Origin: Escherichia phage ECp13
Length of the DNA stretch: 64,000 bases
Direction: 5' to 3' (one strand)
Sequence record: PP274704.1
Under the pieces are notes generated by a model. It did no database searches. It saw only the letters and a list, made by a program, of their open reading frames with translations, and had not been told where the DNA came from. Positions 3,153 to 62,737 of this stretch are shown piece by piece. Position 1 is the first letter of the stretch; each line of letters opens with the position of its first letter. The position numbers and the translations under genes were made by a program.

Positions 3153-4851
3153 TTGTGTATTGACCAGATGAAATAGAACTCATAGATGCCATTTTTTCTG
3201 TCCAATCGCCACCAACGTCCCAATCAACTGTCCCAGCAACTTTCCAAGAAAGATTTCCATTTACTGTATTAGTCTGATTTCCTTCAACTAAAGTGGTAGC
3301 ATCTCCTTTAACTGTAATGTCAGCATTACCTTCAACTACAATAGTAACATTACCTTTGACTAGGATAGTTCCATTACCTTCAACCGTCTTAGTTTCATCG
3401 CCACGCACAAATATTGTATTGCTTCCATCTATTTGGTGGAGACGATTATCCATGTTGTAATAAATTTCTGATCCACCGACGTTAGTCTTTTTATCGCCAG
3501 CTACCAAAAAATTACCATCAGCATTTGTTATATCATACAAATTATCAACAGTTTTTCTTGTTCTTCTTCCTGACGGTGATACTTCCTCATATGTTCCAGT
3601 CGGATGAACTAATCTGTATCGTTCTTGCCCAGGGGTATCATCAAACTCCTGAATATGACCGCTTTCAGTTTCCATTGTATGAACATACGGATATTCGCCT
3701 TTATATGAAGAAACAGGTTCTTTAAATAAAATTCTCGAATCATTCGGAATAGGAGGGTCAGCTGGATCAGAAGACTTTGCTACAGTAGCAGCCATTGCTG
3801 ACAAAGACCTAGCCGGTGTTTTCACTTCAATACCGTATGATTCCAAATTACCCGTAAGAATAATCATGGTAACACGGGATGCACGGCCTTTTGTTTGTTG
3901 ATACCACAATGAATCACGACCAGCTTTATATGCTTTTTCCCAATCTCCGGCTAACATAGCAGTTAACATTGTGTTAAATTTAGCTACACCACCAACACCC
4001 ATCTGAAATGCCATATTTTCTAATGCCATTTGACGAGAACGATTAACTGCTTGCCAAACTGGGCCAACTTTAGAATGTGATTTAATGTCACGTTGCATAT
4101 CAGCCAAATCACGTTCAAATAAAGTTACCGCTTCTTCCATTGTAATAGAACCTGGATTTCCGGTAATTTCACGACCAACTTGTTTTGATAAAACTTTATT
4201 AATTTGAGTCATATCACGAACTGGCTGCTTCATGATAAGATGACCAATACCAATTGTCGGATATCCTTCAGTATCCCAATAAACTTTTAGTCTTAATCCT
4301 TCATCACGGCGAAGCATTTCAGCCATTGACATATTTGGATTATCATCAGTTGGAATCTCTGATAGCGGTCTATCATCGGGATTTATCGCAGTGTCTAGAT
4401 TACTGTCTTGGATAATATTAGAAGACGAATCATATCCTACTTCTCCGCCTTGGTTTAATACGTTAGTATCATTTCCTAGACGTCTAGGATACTGTCCAGT
4501 CGGGTCAGAAAATCCTTCAAGTCTATTCGGTTTTTCGCGAACTATTCCACCATACGTGCCAAGGACAATTCCGTTAGTTTTCCATTTGTCTAAAAAATGA
4601 CCATAAACTCTAGTTCCTTCTACCGGACCAGTAACGGAGCCTCCAATTCCAGACATTGCTGCAGAAGTTATAGGTTGAATAACTGACATCCATGGTAATT
4701 TATCAGTTGGAATACCCATTACATCGCCTTGTGCTCTTTGAGGTGGATGCAGACCAACTACACGAACACGAACACGACCTAATTTTAATGGGTCCATTCT
4801 ATCTTCAACAACACCAACAAACCAATTAAGGTTATTACTTATCATTTCCAT
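3124..4851 (-). CDS. 5: baseplate hub and tail lysozyme gp5
   Basis: 575 aa as in T4 gp5; internal lysozyme domain EGLRLKVYWDTEGYPTIGIGH paralogous to gene e. Confidence 0.9.
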   Translation of the reverse strand: MEMISNNLNWFVGVVEDRMDPLKLGRVRVRVVGLHPPQRAQGDVMGIPTDKLPWMSVIQPITSAAMSGIGGSVTGPVEGTRVYGHFLDKWKTNGIVLGTYGGIVREKPNRLEGFSDPTGQYPRRLGNDTNVLNQGGEVGYDSSSNIIQDSNLDTAINPDDRPLSEIPTDDNPNMSMAEMLRRDEGLRLKVYWDTEGYPTIGIGHLIMKQPVRDMTQINKVLSKQVGREITGNPGSITMEEAVTLFERDLADMQRDIKSHSKVGPVWQAVNRSRQMALENMAFQMGVGGVAKFNTMLTAMLAGDWEKAYKAGRDSLWYQQTKGRASRVTMIILTGNLESYGIEVKTPARSLSAMAATVAKSSDPADPPIPNDSRILFKEPVSSYKGEYPYVHTMETESGHIQEFDDTPGQERYRLVHPTGTYEEVSPSGRRTRKTVDNLYDITNADGNFLVAGDKKTNVGGSEIYYNMDNRLHQIDGSNTIFVRGDETKTVEGNGTILVKGNVTIVVEGNADITVKGDATTLVEGNQTNTVNGNLSWKVAGTVDWDVGGDWTEKMASMSSISSGQYTIDGSRIDIG

Positions 4852-8929: not shown

Positions 8930-9187
8930 ATGAAAACTTTCAAAGAGTTTGCTACAAAAACCACTATCACTGAATCTTCTCACGGTATGGAAGTAAAGCT
9001 TGGAATGGCTTTAGCTGAAGCTGAGCGTCTTTTCTCTCGTATTAAAGAACTTGCTGCTGCAGTCGATCCTTCATCTTTTAAAGGAGACCAAACTAAAGTT
9101 AAAGCACTTTTAGCATTATGCTCCGATGCAGGAGAAATTGCTAAAAATGGTTCTAAGATGAAGAAACGATTAGAAGATTTAAAATAA
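8930..9187 (+). CDS. internal protein (IP) with capsid targeting sequence, ipI locus
   Basis: 85 aa; N-terminus MKTFKEFATKTTITE resembles the T4 IP targeting sequence MKTYQEF..; position after 57B. Confidence 0.65.
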   Translation: MKTFKEFATKTTITESSHGMEVKLGMALAEAERLFSRIKELAAAVDPSSFKGDQTKVKALLALCSDAGEIAKNGSKMKKRLEDLK

Positions 9188-16348: not shown

Positions 16349-16765
16349 ATGACTCGTATTAATTTGACTTTAGTATCTGAACTTGCTGATCAACATTTAA
16401 TCGCAGAATACCGTGAACTGCCGCGTGTTTTTGGTATAGTTCGTAAACATGTTGCAAATGGTAAGCGGGTTAAAGATTTTAAAATATCTTCCGAGTTTAT
16501 TTTAGGTTCTGGTCATGTCACGTTCTTTTACGATAAGTTAGAATTTTTGCGAAAGCGTCAATCAGACATTATAACGGAATGCTTAAAACGTGGGTTCAGT
16601 ATAAAAGATACTGAAGTTCCTGACATCAGCGATATTCCAGCAGAATGGAAAAATGATTATAATCCATGCAAATCAGCTATTAAATTGAGCCAACAACGAC
16701 TCGATGAAAAAATTTTAATGAAGCCATACTGGTATAAATACTACGGTAAAACTATTTACATTTAA
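16349..16765 (+). CDS. denV: endonuclease V (pyrimidine dimer DNA glycosylase)
   Basis: 138 aa; [17 protein letters not shown]...YRELPRVFG clearly homologous to T4 endo V but diverged. Confidence 0.92.
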
Positions 16766-16774
16766 AGGAAACAC

Positions 16775-17248
16775 ATGAAAACATATCAAGAATTTATCAC
16801 TGAAGCAGCTATTAATTCTCAAATTATCGCTGAATCTTTTATTGATCTTTTGAAATTTAAAAAAGGTCAAAAAATCACTGCTGTATTGGATGATGGTACA
16901 GAAGTTGAGATGGATGTACAGGGATATAATTATGCAGTAGATGGAAAACTGTATAATAAATCTCATGCTAAATTTGATTCATTTGACGATTTTGTTAATA
17001 CAGTTGAAGATGAAAAAACTCGTAGATCCATTGCAACTGGCGACGCTAAGGTTCTTATGGCACATGGTCATGAACGTATCCGCGCGAAGCAGAATAAAAT
17101 GGGTGAAGATAATTTTGCATTAGTTGGTTATCAATCTGGTAAACAAACTTATGGTTATCAGCGTACTGCTACCATGTATAACAAAAATGGTAAAATCGCT
17201 TTCGTGAATAGCAAAGGTTCTATTCAGTACGTCAAATCATTCAAATAA
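16775..17248 (+). CDS. internal-protein-like protein with capsid targeting sequence
   Basis: 157 aa; N-terminus MKTYQEFITEAAINS matches the recalled T4 IP targeting sequence MKTYQEFIAEA. Confidence 0.65.
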   Translation: MKTYQEFITEAAINSQIIAESFIDLLKFKKGQKITAVLDDGTEVEMDVQGYNYAVDGKLYNKSHAKFDSFDDFVNTVEDEKTRRSIATGDAKVLMAHGHERIRAKQNKMGEDNFALVGYQSGKQTYGYQRTATMYNKNGKIAFVNSKGSIQYVKSFK

Positions 17249-57787: not shown

Positions 57788-59215
57788 GTGGTAGAAATTA
57801 TTCTTTCTCATCTCATATTTGATCAAGCTTATTTTTCAAAAGTTTGGCCATATATGGATTCAGAATATTTTGAAAGTGGTCCAGCTAAAAATACATTCAA
57901 ATTAATTAAATCTCATGTTAATGAGTACCATAGCGTTCCATCTATTAATGCGTTAAATGTTGCATTAGAAAATAGTTCATTTACTGAAACAGAATATTCT
58001 GGTGTAAAAACACTTATTTCGAAACTAGCCGATTCTCCAGAAGACCACAGCTGGTTAGTAAAAGAAACAGAAAAATATGTTCAGCAAAGGGCGATGTTTA
58101 ATGCTACGTCTAAAATAATTGAAATTCAAACCAATGCTGAGCTTCCTCCGGAAAAACGAAATAAGAAAATGCCGGATGTTGGTGCTATTCCTGACATTAT
58201 GCGCCAAGCATTATCAATTTCATTTGATAGCTACGTTGGTCATGATTGGATGGATGACTACGAAGCACGTTGGCTATCTTATATGAATAAAGCTCGTAAG
58301 GTTCCATTTAAACTCAAAATTCTAAATAAAATTACTAAAGGCGGAGCTGAAACTGGAACACTAAACGTTTTAATGGCTGGTGTTAACGTTGGTAAGTCAT
58401 TAGGTCTGTGTTCATTGGCAGCAGATTATTTACAGCTCGGTCATAATGTTCTTTACATTTCAATGGAAATGGCAGAAGAAGTCTGTGCTAAGCGTATTGA
58501 CGCTAATATGCTTGATGTTTCTCTTGATGACATTGATGACGGGCATATTTCTTACGCTGAGTATAAAGGAAAAATGGAAAAATGGCGTGAGAAATCTACT
58601 CTCGGCCGTTTAATCGTTAAGCAATATCCTACTGGTGGAGCAGACGCTAACACATTTCGATCGCTTTTAAACGAATTGAAGCTCAAGAAGAATTTTGTTC
58701 CAACAATCATTATTGTTGACTATCTGGGTATTTGTAAATCTTGCCGCATTAGAGTTTATTCAGAAAATAGTTACACAACTGTTAAAGCTATCGCAGAGGA
58801 ATTGCGTGCTCTGGCTGTTGAAACTGAAACTGTTCTTTGGACTGCAGCACAGGTTGGTAAACAAGCTTGGGATTCTTCTGATGTTAACATGAGCGATATC
58901 GCAGAATCTGCCGGTCTTCCAGCAACAGCCGATTTTATGCTTGCGGTCATTGAAACCGAGGAGTTAGCAGCTGCTGAACAACAACTCATTAAGCAAATCA
59001 AATCACGATATGGTGATAAGAATAAATGGAATAAGTTTTTGATGGGTGTTCAAAAAGGAAATCAGAAATGGGTAGAAATTGAACAAGATTCTACTCCAAC
59101 TGAAGTGAACGAAGTAGCAGGTTCACAGCAGATTCAGGCTGAACAGAATCGCTATCAAAGAAACGAATCTGCTCGAGCTCAGTTAGATGCTTTGGCAAAT
59201 GAATTAAAATTTTAG
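57788..59215 (+). CDS. 41: replicative DNA helicase gp41
   Basis: 475 aa; GTG start as recalled for T4 gene 41; Walker A GVNVGKS. Confidence 0.93.
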   Translation: MVEIILSHLIFDQAYFSKVWPYMDSEYFESGPAKNTFKLIKSHVNEYHSVPSINALNVALENSSFTETEYSGVKTLISKLADSPEDHSWLVKETEKYVQQRAMFNATSKIIEIQTNAELPPEKRNKKMPDVGAIPDIMRQALSISFDSYVGHDWMDDYEARWLSYMNKARKVPFKLKILNKITKGGAETGTLNVLMAGVNVGKSLGLCSLAADYLQLGHNVLYISMEMAEEVCAKRIDANMLDVSLDDIDDGHISYAEYKGKMEKWREKSTLGRLIVKQYPTGGADANTFRSLLNELKLKKNFVPTIIIVDYLGICKSCRIRVYSENSYTTVKAIAEELRALAVETETVLWTAAQVGKQAWDSSDVNMSDIAESAGLPATADFMLAVIETEELAAAEQQLIKQIKSRYGDKNKWNKFLMGVQKGNQKWVEIEQDSTPTEVNEVAGSQQIQAEQNRYQRNESARAQLDALANELKF

Positions 59216-59244
59216 TTTACAAGCTGACAAGACTATGGTATAGT
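59215..59244 (+). promoter_or_regulatory. early promoter with inverted repeat around -10
   Basis: -35 GTTTACA overlapping gene 41 stop; 9-bp inverted repeat ACAAGACTA/TAGTCTTGT brackets the -10. Confidence 0.55.
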
Positions 59245-59273
59245 AGTCTTGTTGGTTAAATGAGGAGATTGTT

Positions 59274-59456
59274 ATGGAATTGGTAAAGGTAGTTTTTATG
59301 GGGTGGTTTAAGAACGAAAGCATATTTGCTAAAGAAATCACAATGATGAAAGATGACGTTCAATGGGCTACTACTCAATATGCTGAAGTTAATAAAGCGC
59401 TAGTTAAAGCTTTCATTGATGACAAGAAAGTATGTGAAGTGGATTGCCGAGGATAA
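59274..59456 (+). CDS. dmd: antitoxin Dmd (inhibitor of RnlA/LsoA toxins)
   Basis: 60 aa; MELVKVVFMGWFKNES... matches recalled T4 Dmd. Confidence 0.8.
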   Translation: MELVKVVFMGWFKNESIFAKEITMMKDDVQWATTQYAEVNKALVKAFIDDKKVCEVDCRG

Positions 59457-59457
59457 T

Positions 59458-59715
59458 ATGCATATTGTTTTATTTAAACCTACTCCGTATAATGTCAGGA
59501 AAAATACTCAATTCAAAGCACTTATTGCAGATACGTGGGAATTAGTATTAGATATTCCAGCAGAAGAAAGTCCTCCATTTGGTCGAGTGGAATTTATTAA
59601 GTTTGCTGTGCGCCCTACGAAGCGACAGATTCGTCAATGCAAAAGATACTTTCGTAAAATCGTCAAGTTAGAGAAACAGTTTGTAACATGTGATTATACA
59701 GAAGTTTTAAAATAA
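59458..59715 (+). CDS. hypothetical protein (61.4-like)
   Basis: 85 aa from ATG at 59458 after RBS GAGGA. Confidence 0.5.
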   Translation: MHIVLFKPTPYNVRKNTQFKALIADTWELVLDIPAEESPPFGRVEFIKFAVRPTKRQIRQCKRYFRKIVKLEKQFVTCDYTEVLK

Positions 59716-59717
59716 TT

Positions 59718-59747
59718 GTTTACTTTTATTGGAAATTGAGATACTAT
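59718..59747 (+). promoter_or_regulatory. early promoter
   Basis: -35 GTTTACT, 17 bp, -10 TACTAT. Confidence 0.6.
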
Positions 59748-59773
59748 AAACATAAACTACTGAGGAGATTATC

Positions 59774-60067
59774 ATGAAAAAATTTATCTTTGCTGCAATT
59801 TTTGCTTTATCTTCTTGCGCTGCTCAGCCTGCTATGGCGGGTTATGACAAAGATTTGTGTGAATGGTCTATGACTGCAGATCAGACTGAAGTTGAAACTC
59901 AAATTGAAGCGGATATTATGAATATCGTTGAGCGTGATCATCCTGAAATGAAAGCTGAAGTGCAAAAACAACTTAAGTCTGGTGGTGTAATGCAGTATAA
60001 TTACGTTCTGTATTGCGATAAAAACTTTAATAATAAAAATATCATCGCTGAAGTGGTAGGTGAGTAA
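59774..60067 (+). CDS. sp: periplasmic spackle protein Sp
   Basis: 97 aa with signal peptide; matches recalled T4 Sp. Confidence 0.75.
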   Translation: MKKFIFAAIFALSSCAAQPAMAGYDKDLCEWSMTADQTEVETQIEADIMNIVERDHPEMKAEVQKQLKSGGVMQYNYVLYCDKNFNNKNIIAEVVGE

Positions 60068-60079
60068 TTAGAGGTTAGT

Positions 60080-60436
60080 ATGTACAGTTCTGAATTTTCA
60101 TATTTAAAAATGGAAAAAATTTCATACGATTTCATAGATGAAAAGATTTATTACAGCTTCCATGAACCGCGTTTTAATAGTGAGGTTGGGTTTATTGTAG
60201 TAAAAGACAATTTCATTTTAAAGATATATTCGGCATTAAAGGATTTTCATTACGAAAATATTAACCTAAAATTTGATAAAGAAAACGTTCGTAATTGTGC
60301 AGTAACAATTACAGGAAATAAAGGTACATGTGTTATGCTATCTGATGAAATTAATGATTTGTTAAATGATGTAGAAAAGGTTGCTATTCCATCTATTGAT
60401 GACCAAATTTTTAATGCTTTTATGAATAGAGGTTAA
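60080..60436 (+). CDS. hypothetical protein (61.2-like)
   Basis: 118 aa; RBS GAGG. Confidence 0.5.
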   Translation: MYSSEFSYLKMEKISYDFIDEKIYYSFHEPRFNSEVGFIVVKDNFILKIYSALKDFHYENINLKFDKENVRNCAVTITGNKGTCVMLSDEINDLLNDVEKVAIPSIDDQIFNAFMNRG

Positions 60437-60437
60437 T

Positions 60438-60602
60438 ATGAAAACATATAAAGAATTTATTAAAGAAGATATGGTAGCTGGAGATTCAGGTGGTAATCCT
60501 GAAAATATCTCCACTGGAACAACGTCAGGTGCTGTAGTAAATAAAGGTCCTGAACAGATTCCTAAAAAGAAAAAAGAGGAATCTAAAGAAAAAGAAGAGT
60601 AA
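60438..60602 (+). CDS. small peptide with capsid-targeting-like N-terminus
   Basis: 54 aa hand-translated; MKTYKEFIKEDMVAG... then Gly/Ser-rich and KKKKEESKEKEE tail. Confidence 0.45.
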   Translation: MKTYKEFIKEDMVAGDSGGNPENISTGTTSGAVVNKGPEQIPKKKKEESKEKEE

Positions 60603-60604
60603 AA

Positions 60605-61633
60605 ATGTCATCAATACCTTGGATTGATAATGAGTTTGCATACCGTGCATTAGCTCATTTACCTAAATTCACACAAGTAAATAATAGTTCAACTTTTAAA
60701 TTGCGGTTTAGATGCCCTGTTTGTGGAGATTCAAAAACCGACCAAAATAAAGCCCGTGGATGGTATTATGGTGATAATAATGAAGGAAATATTCATTGTT
60801 ATAACTGCAACTATCATGCACCAATCGGAATATATTTAAAGGAGTTTGAACCTGATTTATATCGTGAGTATATCTTTGAAATAAGAAAAGAAAAAGGTAA
60901 AAGTCGTCCAGTAGAAAAACCTAAAGAACTTCCTAAACAACCTGAGAAGAAAATAATTAAATCTCTTCCGTCATGCATTAGATTAGATAAACTGGCGGAA
61001 GACCATCCAATTATAAAATATGTAAAAGCTCGTTGTATTCCAAAGAATAAATGGAAATATCTTTGGTTTACAACCGAATGGCCTAAATTAGTTAATAGTA
61101 TAGCGCCAGGAACATATAAAAAGGAAATACCTGAGCCTCGTCTTGTTATTCCAATTTATAATGCTAACGGAAAAGCTGAGTCTTTTCAAGGACGTGCATT
61201 AAAGAAAGATGCTCCTCAAAAATATATCACCATCAAAGCTTATCCTGAGGCAACAAAAATTTATGGAGTTGAACGGGTTAAAGATGGTGATGTATATGTT
61301 CTAGAAGGACCTATAGATTCACTTTTTATTGAAAATGGTATAGCTATTACGGGCGGTCAATTAGACCTAGAAATTGTTCCATTTAAAGATAGACGTGTAT
61401 GGGTTTTAGATAATGAACCTCGTCATCCTGACACTATTAAACGAATGACTAAATTGGTCGATGCAGGAGAAAGGGTTATGTTTTGGGACAAATCTCCCTG
61501 GAAATCAAAAGATGTTAATGATATGATTAGAAAGGAAGGTGCAACCCCTAAACAAATTATGGAATATATGAAAAATAATATTGCCCAAGGGTTGATGGCT
61601 AAAATGCGGCTATCTAAATATGCTAAGATTTAA
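60605..61633 (+). CDS. 61: DNA primase gp61
   Basis: 342 aa; zinc ribbon CPVCGDS...CYNCNYH; matches T4 gp61. Confidence 0.92.
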   Translation: MSSIPWIDNEFAYRALAHLPKFTQVNNSSTFKLRFRCPVCGDSKTDQNKARGWYYGDNNEGNIHCYNCNYHAPIGIYLKEFEPDLYREYIFEIRKEKGKSRPVEKPKELPKQPEKKIIKSLPSCIRLDKLAEDHPIIKYVKARCIPKNKWKYLWFTTEWPKLVNSIAPGTYKKEIPEPRLVIPIYNANGKAESFQGRALKKDAPQKYITIKAYPEATKIYGVERVKDGDVYVLEGPIDSLFIENGIAITGGQLDLEIVPFKDRRVWVLDNEPRHPDTIKRMTKLVDAGERVMFWDKSPWKSKDVNDMIRKEGATPKQIMEYMKNNIAQGLMAKMRLSKYAKI

Positions 61634-61830
61634 ATTAACCCAACTAAAGCAAATGCTAAATCTACGAATGTATCAAGAGTAATTACTGGAATATTAACGC
61701 CATGAGCAATAGCAATTGGCGATAAAACAAAATTCCAGAGTAAAATTCCTACCATAGCAGAAATAGTAAAAGCTATACGTTTTTTATTACCTTTTATGGC
61801 ATTAACAAGTGCCATTAATTTTTGTACCAT
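61630..61830 (-). CDS. small membrane protein encoded antisense between 61 and 56
   Basis: 66 aa, two hydrophobic helices; strong SD AAGGAGG just upstream of the ATG on the minus strand. Confidence 0.4.
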   Translation of the reverse strand: MVQKLMALVNAIKGNKKRIAFTISAMVGILLWNFVLSPIAIAHGVNIPVITLDTFVDLAFALVGLI

Positions 61831-61901
61831 ATGTCCTCCTTATTGCTTTATATATTTATTGTATAATTAATCTACTAACCCATGAATTGAAAGGAAAAAT
61901 A

Positions 61902-62419
61902 ATGGCTTACTTTAATGAATGTAGTCAACTGATTGAAGGCGCTGATAAAGCTCAAAATGAATACTGGGATATTCTCGGCGATGAAAAAGACCCGCTGCAG
62001 GTTATGCTTGATATGCAGAAATCTCTGCAGGTTCGTTTAGCTAAAGATAAACCTGAATATAACCGTCATCCTGATGATTTGGCTACTGCAGGTGAAGTTG
62101 TTGATTGGCTGCGTAATCAGAAAGATTATATTGATGATGAATTCCGCGAACTTCTGACTTCTCTTGGTGGTATGAGCAATGGCGAAAAAGATGCATCTGC
62201 TGTATGGAAGCTTGGAAGTCGCAACACGGTGAACGTCGTGAAACTCTGATTACTGACTTATCTCCACAAGACCAGTTGGAAATTAAATTCGAAATGATTG
62301 ATATTCTTCATTTCGTTCTGAACATGTTCCAAGGTCTCGGTCTTACGGCTGAAGAAATCTTTAAACTTTATTATCTGAAAAATGCTGAAAACTTCGCTCG
62401 TCAAGACCGAGGTTATTAA
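61902..62419 (+). pseudogene. 56: dCTPase gene 56 disrupted by a frameshift (two overlapping ORFs)
   Basis: N-part from ATG 61902 stops at 62249; C-part (..SPQDQLEIKFEMIDILHF..RQDRGY) is in another frame to 62419; removing 8 bp at 62211-62218 gives about 169 aa. Confidence 0.7.
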
Positions 62420-62453
62420 TATAAACGACGGCTTAAAAGCTGTGAGAATTTAT

Positions 62454-62461
62454 TATAAATA
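62454..62461 (+). promoter_or_regulatory. late promoter TATAAATA for soc
   Basis: Exact TATAAATA about 30 bp upstream of soc. Confidence 0.6.
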
Positions 62462-62491
62462 GTCATGTAATTTAAATAAAAGGAGAATTAC

Positions 62492-62737
62492 ATGGCTAGT
62501 ACTCGCGGTTATGTTAATATTAAAACATTTGAGCAGAAATTAGATGGAAATAAGAAAATTGAAGGAAAGGAAATTTCTGTAGCTTTCCCTCTTTATTCTG
62601 ACGTTCACAAAATTTCTGGTGCTCATTACCAGACATTCCCTTCAGAAAAAGCAGCATATACTACTGTATACGAAGAAAATCAACGTGATGCATGGATTGC
62701 TGCAAACGAAGATCTGTGGAAAGTAACTGGTGGTTAA
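62492..62737 (+). CDS. soc: small outer capsid protein Soc
   Basis: 81 aa; MASTRGYVNIKTFEQKLDGNKKIEGKEISVAFPLY... matches recalled T4 Soc. Confidence 0.9.
   Translation: MASTRGYVNIKTFEQKLDGNKKIEGKEISVAFPLYSDVHKISGAHYQTFPSEKAAYTTVYEENQRDAWIAANEDLWKVTGG

Follow-up and report, generated by a model that had tools for sequence, protein, structure and literature searches.

Gene 61.1 of Tequatrovirus phages joins a capsid-targeting-type leader to a paralogue of the gp23 cleavage site and N-fist

What is a 54-residue protein that begins like an internal head protein of phage T4 doing in a replication gene cluster, directly upstream of the primase gene? The question is raised by a small open reading frame (ORF) on the plus strand, at positions 60438–60602, of a 64,000-nucleotide stretch of Escherichia phage ECp13 (sequence record PP274704.1), referred to here as the window. 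An earlier note on this DNA had drawn attention to the likeness of its N-terminus to the capsid targeting sequence (CTS) of internal proteins, followed by a predicted cleavage site, and had proposed a tiny packaged peptide that would be injected along with the DNA and might bind DNA or counter host defences. The ORF is exactly as located there and is genuine. As the orthologue of T4 gene 61.1, it is an already annotated gene of hypothetical function and not a newly found gene. Sequence comparison divides its predicted product into three parts: a CTS-type leader with a predicted site for the protease gp21, a 28-residue paralogue of the N-fist of the capsid protein gp23, and a Lys-rich charged tail. 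The gp23 paralogy of the body, the known identity of the gene in T4 and the presence of gene 40 in the same cluster had all been missed.

The identity of the gene is straightforward. From the ATG at 60438 to the TAA at 60600–60602 the ORF comprises 54 codons plus the stop and encodes MKTYKEFIKEDMVAGDSGGNPENISTGTTSGAVVNKGPEQIPKKKKEESKEKEE; a Shine-Dalgarno sequence, GAGG, can be read at 60429–60432, 5 nt before the ATG. The window belongs to Tequatrovirus: the segment 60000–60700 shares 98.6% identity with Shigella phage SH7 and has matches in 509 phage records, and more than 500 Tequatrovirus records match at 95–99%. The protein shares 52 of 54 residues (96%) with T4 gp61.1 (NP_049649; UniProt P39228; PHROG 1823), the substitutions being Y4F and T26I (residue 26 is Ile in T4 and Thr in the window), and the phrog_1823 profile matches its full length (residues 1–54, E=7e-34). 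At the same slot, between 61.2 and 61, the T4 annotation has a 54-residue "gp61.1 hypothetical protein". Nonsynonymous divergence (pN) is far below synonymous divergence (pS) in comparisons with 61.1 of both T4 (pN 0.015, pS 0.15) and JS98 (pN 0.12, pS 0.77), indicating purifying selection on the gene and its frame, and on these grounds we regard the ORF as a real, translated small gene. The opposite-strand ORFs at 60362–60514 and 60525–60650 were dismissed as spurious given that the conservation pattern tracks the plus-strand frame, and an Rfam scan of 59000–62000 yielded no match.

Domain databases offered no function. Pfam has no match for the 54-residue protein, Pfam and NCBIfam scans of this peptide and of its longer homologues (see below) returned nothing meaningful, and PHROGs lists only families of "unknown function", 1823 and 2086; the literature searched assigns no function to gp61.1. 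Because some homologues are named "major capsid domain-containing protein" in databases, we compared the protein directly with gp23. By BLASTP, residues 2–38 of 61.1 align without gaps to gp23 residues 57–93, with 16 of 37 positions identical (43%, E=1e-8). When a profile built from 14 family members was run against 177,635 distinct PDB sequences (E up to 10), T4 gp23 chains were the sole matches, the precursor at E=1.2e-5 (residues 58–94) and mature gp23* at E=5e-4. Against an alignment of the gp23 N-termini of nine T4-like phages, taken from phage records, hhalign gave a probability of 97.3% (E=2e-11) for the short forms of the family and 98.4% (E=8e-15) for the long forms. The aligned gp23 columns were 48–100 only, so that the homology does not reach the first ~47 residues of the gp23 propeptide. 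Finally, a 41-residue consensus of the module, searched by tblastn against 50,697 phage records, occurred roughly twice per genome (2866 places, 1506 records), and among the matches listed these places are gene 61.1 and gene 23.

The segment concerned is the N-fist-like core, D11–P38 (DMVAGDSGGNPENISTGTTSGAVVNKGP; 60468–60551), homologous to gp23* residues 66–93 (AEIGGDHGYNATNIAAGQTSGAVTQIGP). The gp23 motif E|xx(I/V)xGDxG...NIAxGxTSGxV..GP, in which the maturation site is followed by the N-fist, is present in 61.1, and of the 14 positions that never vary in gp23 between 65 and 93, about 10 are also fixed or almost fixed in the 61.1 family (E65, G70, D71, G73, I79, A80, G82, G86, G92 and P93 in gp23 numbering). 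The description of this part as Gly/Ser-rich was accurate but understated what is a conserved, gp23-homologous motif and not low-complexity sequence. What 61.1 shares with T4 gp23 is thus 37 gapless residues with an aligned cleavage Glu and a Gly/Asp/Ile/Pro skeleton; it lacks the HK97-like capsid fold body (the A, P and I domains; Gp23 family PF07068) and the first ~47 propeptide residues, and past the GP motif, where gp23 continues into the N-arm, 61.1 has instead its charged tail, E39–E54 (EQIPKKKKEESKEKEE; 60552–60599). This tail, correctly described earlier as highly charged (KKKKEESKEKEE), is Lys/Arg-rich (KKKRK-like) in nearly all homologues. By these alignments, the body of 61.1 is a paralogue of the gp23 cleavage site and N-fist.

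In gp23, maturation removes the 65 N-terminal residues (PMC9546572), and the N-fist comprises gp23* residues 66–91 (PMC7136217). This segment is disordered in the prohead, internal and pointing at the core (PMC9546572, PMC9958956, PMC7136217), and before expansion it probably touches the scaffolding core (PMC9546572, PMC9958956). After expansion it lies outside, where it touches four subunits, two in its own capsomer and two in the adjacent one, and helps to form the Soc binding site (PMC9546572, PMC9958956); in the five portal-facing gp23* subunits it is disordered (PMC7136217). The N-fist motif was absent from the cyanophage gp23 that we examined, and Synechococcus phages, for which 379 records with a gp23 homologue exist, are outside the ten commonest host names among the 1506 records with module matches, such that the N-fist and 61.1 appear to share their distribution.

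The resemblance has left traces in public records, where 61.1 orthologues are named "major capsid protein", "major capsid domain-containing protein" or "gp23-like", for example in Acinetobacter phage Melin, Escherichia phages dhaeg and JLBYU24 and Citrobacter phage Moon. The capsid names are misleading because they have been propagated from a similarity over the 30-residue N-fist. The annotators of Moon, who put "gp23-like" on the ORF, had evidently already noticed the likeness by BLAST; in the literature searched we found no published interpretation of it.

The leader, M1–E10 (MKTYKEFIKE; 60438–60467), has the same residue as the T4 IPII/IPIII sequence MKTYQEFIAE at 8 of 10 positions, and the T4 IPI precursor begins MKTFKEF. 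For the CTS of T4 internal proteins, a review of Black laboratory work states that the ten N-terminal residues of IPIII are enough for targeting, residues 4 and 7 mattering most for targeting and residues 8 and 10 for processing (PMC9026906, which summarises Mullaney and Black 1996). The 61.1 leader keeps all four of these (Y4, F7, I8 and E10), and the likeness to the internal-protein sequence pointed out in the earlier note was therefore well founded. Scanning every start codon on both strands of the whole window, we found a CTS match of at least 8 of 10 at two only, the 61.1 ORF (8/10) and the internal-protein gene at 16775–17248 (9/10); by our own estimate, the chance expectation for such matches is below 1e-3. 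The likeness extends to DNA: T4 61.1 and T4 ipI begin with the same 22 nt, which suggests that the leader was acquired through recombination with an ip gene. Thus 61.1 shares with IPI, IPII and IPIII a leader of the form MKT(Y/F)xEFIxE, ending in a gp21-type site, together with leader identity at the DNA level, and the IPI-locus protein of JS98 has the same FIKE| leader ending as 61.1 of the window.

The leader also meets gp23 at its end. Residues 56–65 of gp23 (..AFGSFLTE|) align with M1–E10 of 61.1, and the cleavage Glu65 falls exactly on Glu10 (FLTE|AEIGGD versus FIKE|DMVAGD). As a separate observation, these last residues of the gp23 propeptide align with the internal-protein targeting sequence itself at positions 4, 7, 8 and 10, the paired residues of CTS and gp23 being Y4/F60, F7/F63, I8/L64 and E10/E65. 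On this resemblance the leader may work by mimicking the core- and protease-facing part of gp23, and the targeting signal of internal proteins may itself be an imitation of that gp23 segment.

The junction between leader and body (TYKEFIKEDMVAGDSG) carries the predicted gp21 site, I-K-E|D in the window. The cleavage motif seen earlier, of the gp21 type I-x-E, proved to be kept across the family: 58 of 62 homologues have a Glu 1–2 residues before the invariant (M/V)VAGD with a hydrophobic residue at P3 (L 25, I 16, M 7, F 6, V 3, Y 1). Our site picker favoured a Glu with hydrophobic P3 where several Glu were available, which inflates this count somewhat, but not to 94%. Known gp21 sites follow the same pattern, as in gp23 (LTE|A), IPII and IPIII (IAE|A) and Alt (ITE-6 and LTE-619; PMC5694885). 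Cleavage here would release a 44-residue peptide beginning DMVAGDSGGNPENIS, with a mass of 4602 Da and a pI of 5.0 for the window sequence; the predicted mature peptide is thus not basic in ECp13.

How widespread is this arrangement, and which part of it is old? A word-indexed protein search returned 17 short-form clusters of 51–62 amino acids. In their alignment the core EDMVAGD.GG..NI..GTT.G..NKGPE..P.KK is invariant, 18 columns being invariant across clusters that share 63–78% identity, and the leader MK(T/S)(Y/F)KE(F/V) is present in 14 of 15 clusters, the remaining one beginning MTILQQYLDSLNE. When 1.84 billion representatives were searched exhaustively with a profile, 50 matches of two architectures emerged: short peptides, many with an MK.F.EF-like start, and proteins of 130–165 amino acids that carry the module C-terminally (PHROG 2086). 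In other Straboviridae, gp61.1 is this long form, which tblastn found in 609 records, including Aeh1 and RB43 (where it is annotated "gp61.1"), KVP40, Mosigvirus, Moonvirus, Winklervirus and Acinetobacter, Klebsiella and Enterobacter phages. Overall, the module is conserved in Straboviridae infecting Escherichia, Klebsiella, Acinetobacter, Aeromonas, Vibrio and Pseudomonas. The two forms have in common the module (M/V)VAGD.GG..NIA.G.TSG...KGP, the Lys-rich tail, the hydrophobic-x-Glu ahead of the module and the primase gene downstream; they differ in what precedes the module, an N-terminal domain of ~100 residues in the long form and a 10-residue CTS-like leader in the window gene. If cleaved at the equivalent site, the long forms would yield the same ~45-residue peptide that is expected of the T4 short form.

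Gene position is equally stable, 61.1 lying directly upstream of the primase gene on the same strand in T4, JS98, Aeh1, ZZ1, KVP40, RB43, Moon, CHI14 and JS09, with the order uvsX-(orf)-40-41-61.1-61 in Aeh1. The 61.1 of Dhakavirus (JS98) is a T4-like short form of 53 residues. Judged by this distribution, the Tequatrovirus 61.1 is a truncated version of a widely conserved gene, in which, as in Dhakavirus, the ~100-residue N-terminal domain has been exchanged for a minimal CTS-like leader. Conservation in homologues had been named as a check on the capsid-targeting idea, and the outcome is mixed: the leader is kept by nearly all short-form clusters, but that of JS98 has drifted, and most genera have the N-terminal domain instead.

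Several further observations concern this history. In a T4-like contig of 164.7 kb from IMG/VR, positions 4001–4177 encode a 58-residue short form (MIGFKQFVEENKLKE|DMTAGD...) between gene 41 and primase, parted from the latter by three small ORFs, one of which (187 residues) looks by eye like an HNH/homing endonuclease. A short form in a further T4-like lineage suggests that truncation may have occurred more than once. The 118-residue ORF upstream of 61.1 in the window (60080–60436) was considered as a remnant of the lost N-terminal domain and ruled out (hhalign probability 0.2%). A structural model of the long-form N-terminal domain is helical with a small hairpin and confident over residues 1–70, and gave no fold match. 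In a Foldseek search of BFVD, the long-form model matched viral proteins of 672, 913, 396 and 387 residues with the same N-terminal domain, which may be fusions hinting at the partners of this domain; RB69ORF032c (63 residues) was also matched.

The explanation that we tentatively put first, while considering it somewhat short of probable, is that 61.1 encodes a prohead-targeted peptide which gp21 cuts, releasing a 44-residue N-fist-like peptide that acts on the head. From the three-part anatomy we infer core targeting, cleavage and an action of the released peptide. The precursor would join the scaffolding core of the prohead via its leader and gp23-like segment, as gp23 and the internal proteins do; gp21 would then cut after Glu10; and the released peptide of 4.6 kDa, its new N-terminus mimicking that of gp23*, might, for example, occupy or compete for N-fist docking sites on gp23 capsomers, or alternatively stay with the DNA via its Lys-rich tail. 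Replacement of a ~100-residue domain by a head-targeting leader whose final Glu coincides with the conserved cleavage Glu is easiest to understand if the N-terminal part serves for delivery to the prohead and cleavage there. T4 has precedents for small proteins entering the core and being processed by gp21 to peptides, among them gp67, gp68 and the head internal peptides (head composition is listed in PMC9546572 and PMC5694885). Like these, 61.1 as proposed here would be small, core-entering and gp21-cut; unlike 61.1, gp67 and gp68 are encoded by late genes of the head cluster, and we saw no similarity of the 61.1 module to either, the matches listed by tblastn being 61.1 and gene 23. The internal proteins differ too. 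They are hypervariable and encoded at polymorphic loci (near e/denV and 57B), whereas 61.1 lies in the 41-61 cluster, in the window without a late promoter, and its predicted mature part is conserved, tiny (44 residues) and, in this phage, acidic. That the gene sits among replication genes and away from a classical internal-protein locus, as had been remarked, is correct as to location; it is less odd than it seemed, given that the head-assembly gene 40 belongs to the same uvsX-40-41-61.1-61 cluster.

The expression of the gene bears on this proposal. In the window, the TAA of the preceding ORF (60434–60436) ends 1 nt ahead of the 61.1 ATG, so that the two ORFs are probably translationally coupled, and gene 61 (DNA primase, 60605–61633, plus strand) starts 2 nt past the 61.1 stop. 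The placement between sp/61.2 and primase given in the earlier note holds as a position, but what fills the 61.2 slot is a different ORF: the gene corresponds to T4 61.1 in length and in lying between that slot and primase, and differs in its upstream neighbour, the 118-residue ORF where T4 has the 208-residue 61.2. The best sigma-70-like promoter, TTTACA-17-TATAGT with TG, at 59216–59244 after gene 41, is a consensus match in a region where the number of such matches is not above chance; a terminator-like hairpin with T-run at 61796–61815, after primase, is likewise a consensus match only (both on the plus strand). They are the likely start and end, respectively, of an early unit, which the sequence suggests carries sp, the 118-residue ORF, 61.1 and 61.

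For late transcription the picture varies among phages. Exact late-promoter boxes, TATAAATA, precede the internal-protein gene (16733), gene e (15761 and 15774) and soc (62454) in the window, which before 61.1 holds TATGAATA at 60422–60429, not a late box. Among 11 phages surveyed, JS98 has an exact TATAAATA 21 nt before the 61.1 ATG (JS98 locus 1480–1487), and boxes with 1–2 mismatches lie ahead of 61.1 in five others, namely CHI14 (GATAAATA), Aeh1 (CATAAATA, past a terminator hairpin) and, about equally far from the gene, Moon, JS09 and ZZ1 (xxTAAATA); none was found in KVP40, RB43, phiEap-3, T4 or the window. As support for late expression, this survey is suggestive at best.

Several observations weigh against a processed head peptide. 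The plus strand of the window has no TATAAATA within 38 kb upstream of 61.1, nor is there one near 61.1 in T4. In T4 the 61.1 transcript is classed "early" and its protein "NA", that is, not detected (PMC9697503 Table S2). In the same data, ipII, ipIII and gene 40 have early transcripts and proteins classed late (PMC9697503 Table S2), a pattern that provides precedent for an early-transcribed head gene; moreover, the non-detection is tempered by the fact that a Lys-rich protein of 54 residues is hard to see by tryptic proteomics. Knock-down of T4 61.1 by CRISPRi-ART was scored "Not Fit" (−0.84, 4 guides; PMC11879866). It follows from this neutral result that any role in the head is dispensable in the laboratory. 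Internal proteins and Soc are likewise dispensable on laboratory E. coli. The peptide is not mentioned in proheads or virions in the T4 head composition lists and mass-spectrometry literature searched, and capsid maps at 3.3–3.4 Å report no extra N-fist-like density, only an unexplained helical density under gp24*. At the sequence level, the residue at P1' is Asp in 61.1 of the window and Met in other homologues. The leader of JS98 61.1 has drifted to MKSFKEVMNE, with F7 replaced by V at a position relevant to targeting, while the five internal-protein genes of that phage keep MKTY.EF(I/L).E; co-variation of the 61.1 leader with the internal-protein leaders of the same genome, tested in JS98, was not found. 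Lastly, the conserved slot between helicase and primase could indicate a role linked to replication.

Part of this evidence would suit a protein that never enters the head. As a possible, though rather doubtful, alternative, 61.1 may be an early, unpackaged, cytoplasmic mimic of the gp23 N-terminus that competes for whatever binds gp23 residues ~57–93, namely gp21, the gp22 core or N-fist sockets, and that could damp premature or aberrant association of gp23 (polyheads) or time its maturation cleavage. The gp23 homology speaks as strongly for such a mimic, and the early transcript, lacking a late promoter in T4 and the window, the neutral knock-down, which suits a fine-tuning role, and a JS98 leader less constrained than true internal-protein targeting sequences all agree with it. 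However, a near-identical working targeting leader and the hydrophobic-x-Glu site in 58 of 62 homologues would then be unnecessary, an early protein would have to last until gp23 appears, and the conserved Lys-rich tail would have no obvious role.

Gene order brings up another candidate, a replication-linked protein working with the helicase-primase, for example by binding DNA through the Lys-rich tail, in which the gp23-like stretch would be an old captured fragment without a present link to the capsid. We consider this unlikely, even though the gene is directly upstream of primase in every genus examined and between 41 and 61 in Aeh1, is probably co-transcribed with primase as an early unit, and encodes a tail that is basic in most genera. 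A shade less likely again is that the product, brought to the prohead by its leader (by the N-terminal domain in other genera) and freed by the maturation protease, serves as a free-standing N-fist, plugging sockets left unfilled by gp23, near the gp24 pentons or the portal, or gating expansion; if so, T4-like phages would have, family-wide, a minor capsid component that had gone unrecognised and whose gene lies in the replication cluster.

The packaged and injected DNA-binding or anti-defence effector proposed in the earlier note fits poorly, and we rate it as improbable. In its favour are the CTS-like leader with its cleavage motif, the precedent of the T4 internal proteins, which are anti-restriction factors with the same leader (PMC3012670), and the dispensability in a laboratory host that is typical of anti-defence genes. 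Against it, the internal proteins are hypervariable and locus-specific, whereas the 61.1 module is conserved across Straboviridae of six host genera; conservation in phages of such different hosts is hard to reconcile with a host-specific anti-defence effector. The predicted mature peptide is, besides, acidic here, and the literature searched holds no evidence of it in virions. In a variant of the effector idea, the protein, made early, would imitate the N-terminus of the capsid protein and so divert host sensors of gp23. A further point against is that the Gol region of gp23, which the Lit system senses, probably lies just C-terminal to the copied segment. It is very improbable that the ORF is unexpressed or functionless and conserved merely through tight packing between its neighbours, as absence from time-resolved proteomics and the silent knock-down might suggest, given a pN far below pS, the 18 invariant columns, a Shine-Dalgarno sequence, and a module kept in two architectures and more than 1500 phage records.

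Some features of the surrounding DNA deserve mention in their own right. The internal-protein repertoire of the window is unlike that of T4: a single 157-residue internal protein (MKTYQEFITE|A; 16775–17248, plus strand; late-promoter box at 16733–16740) follows denV where T4 has ipII and ipIII, and the ipI locus is occupied by a gene for an 85-residue protein with an IPI-type leader (MKTFKEFATKTTITE|S, starting MKTFKEFATK; 8930–9187, plus strand). The ORF upstream of 61.1 ends in 14 codons (60395–60436; ..SIDDQIFNAFMNRG*) that are common to three proteins otherwise unrelated by eye, namely this 118-residue product, T4 gp61.2 (208 residues) and JS98 orf30 (144 residues, not adjoining 61.1), and that may mark a recombination junction or a conserved C-terminal peptide. 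Gene 56 (dCTPase, 171 residues, listed as essential in T4) is split into overlapping ORFs at 61809–62249 and 62204–62419 by an apparent 1-nt frameshift near 62195–62215 relative to T4, attributable to a sequencing error, or else to recoding or a genuine lesion. Unlike T4, the window has no dam methyltransferase gene and no segF between primase and gene 56/soc (61634–62491). The soc gene (62492–62737), with its own late box at 62454, lies 1.9 kb downstream of the N-fist-like gene, the gp23 N-fist being part of the Soc site.

The assembly of the T4 head is among the best-studied pathways, yet 61.1 has remained "hypothetical" for decades. The gene was already annotated; what is new here is its three-part anatomy and the history of its family, which turn an anonymous ORF into a specific, testable hypothesis of a protease-processed, capsid-directed mini-protein. 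Should this be refuted, 61.1 would still be a clear case of capture of a capsid fragment, and the automatic name "major capsid (domain-containing) protein" would still be wrong. If it is true, the finding would give the T4 head a further component or regulator and would mean that a targeting leader can be naturally grafted onto cargo other than internal proteins; it would also provide a natural variant of the 10-residue leader and a 28-residue capsid-binding peptide for the engineering of T4 display and delivery.

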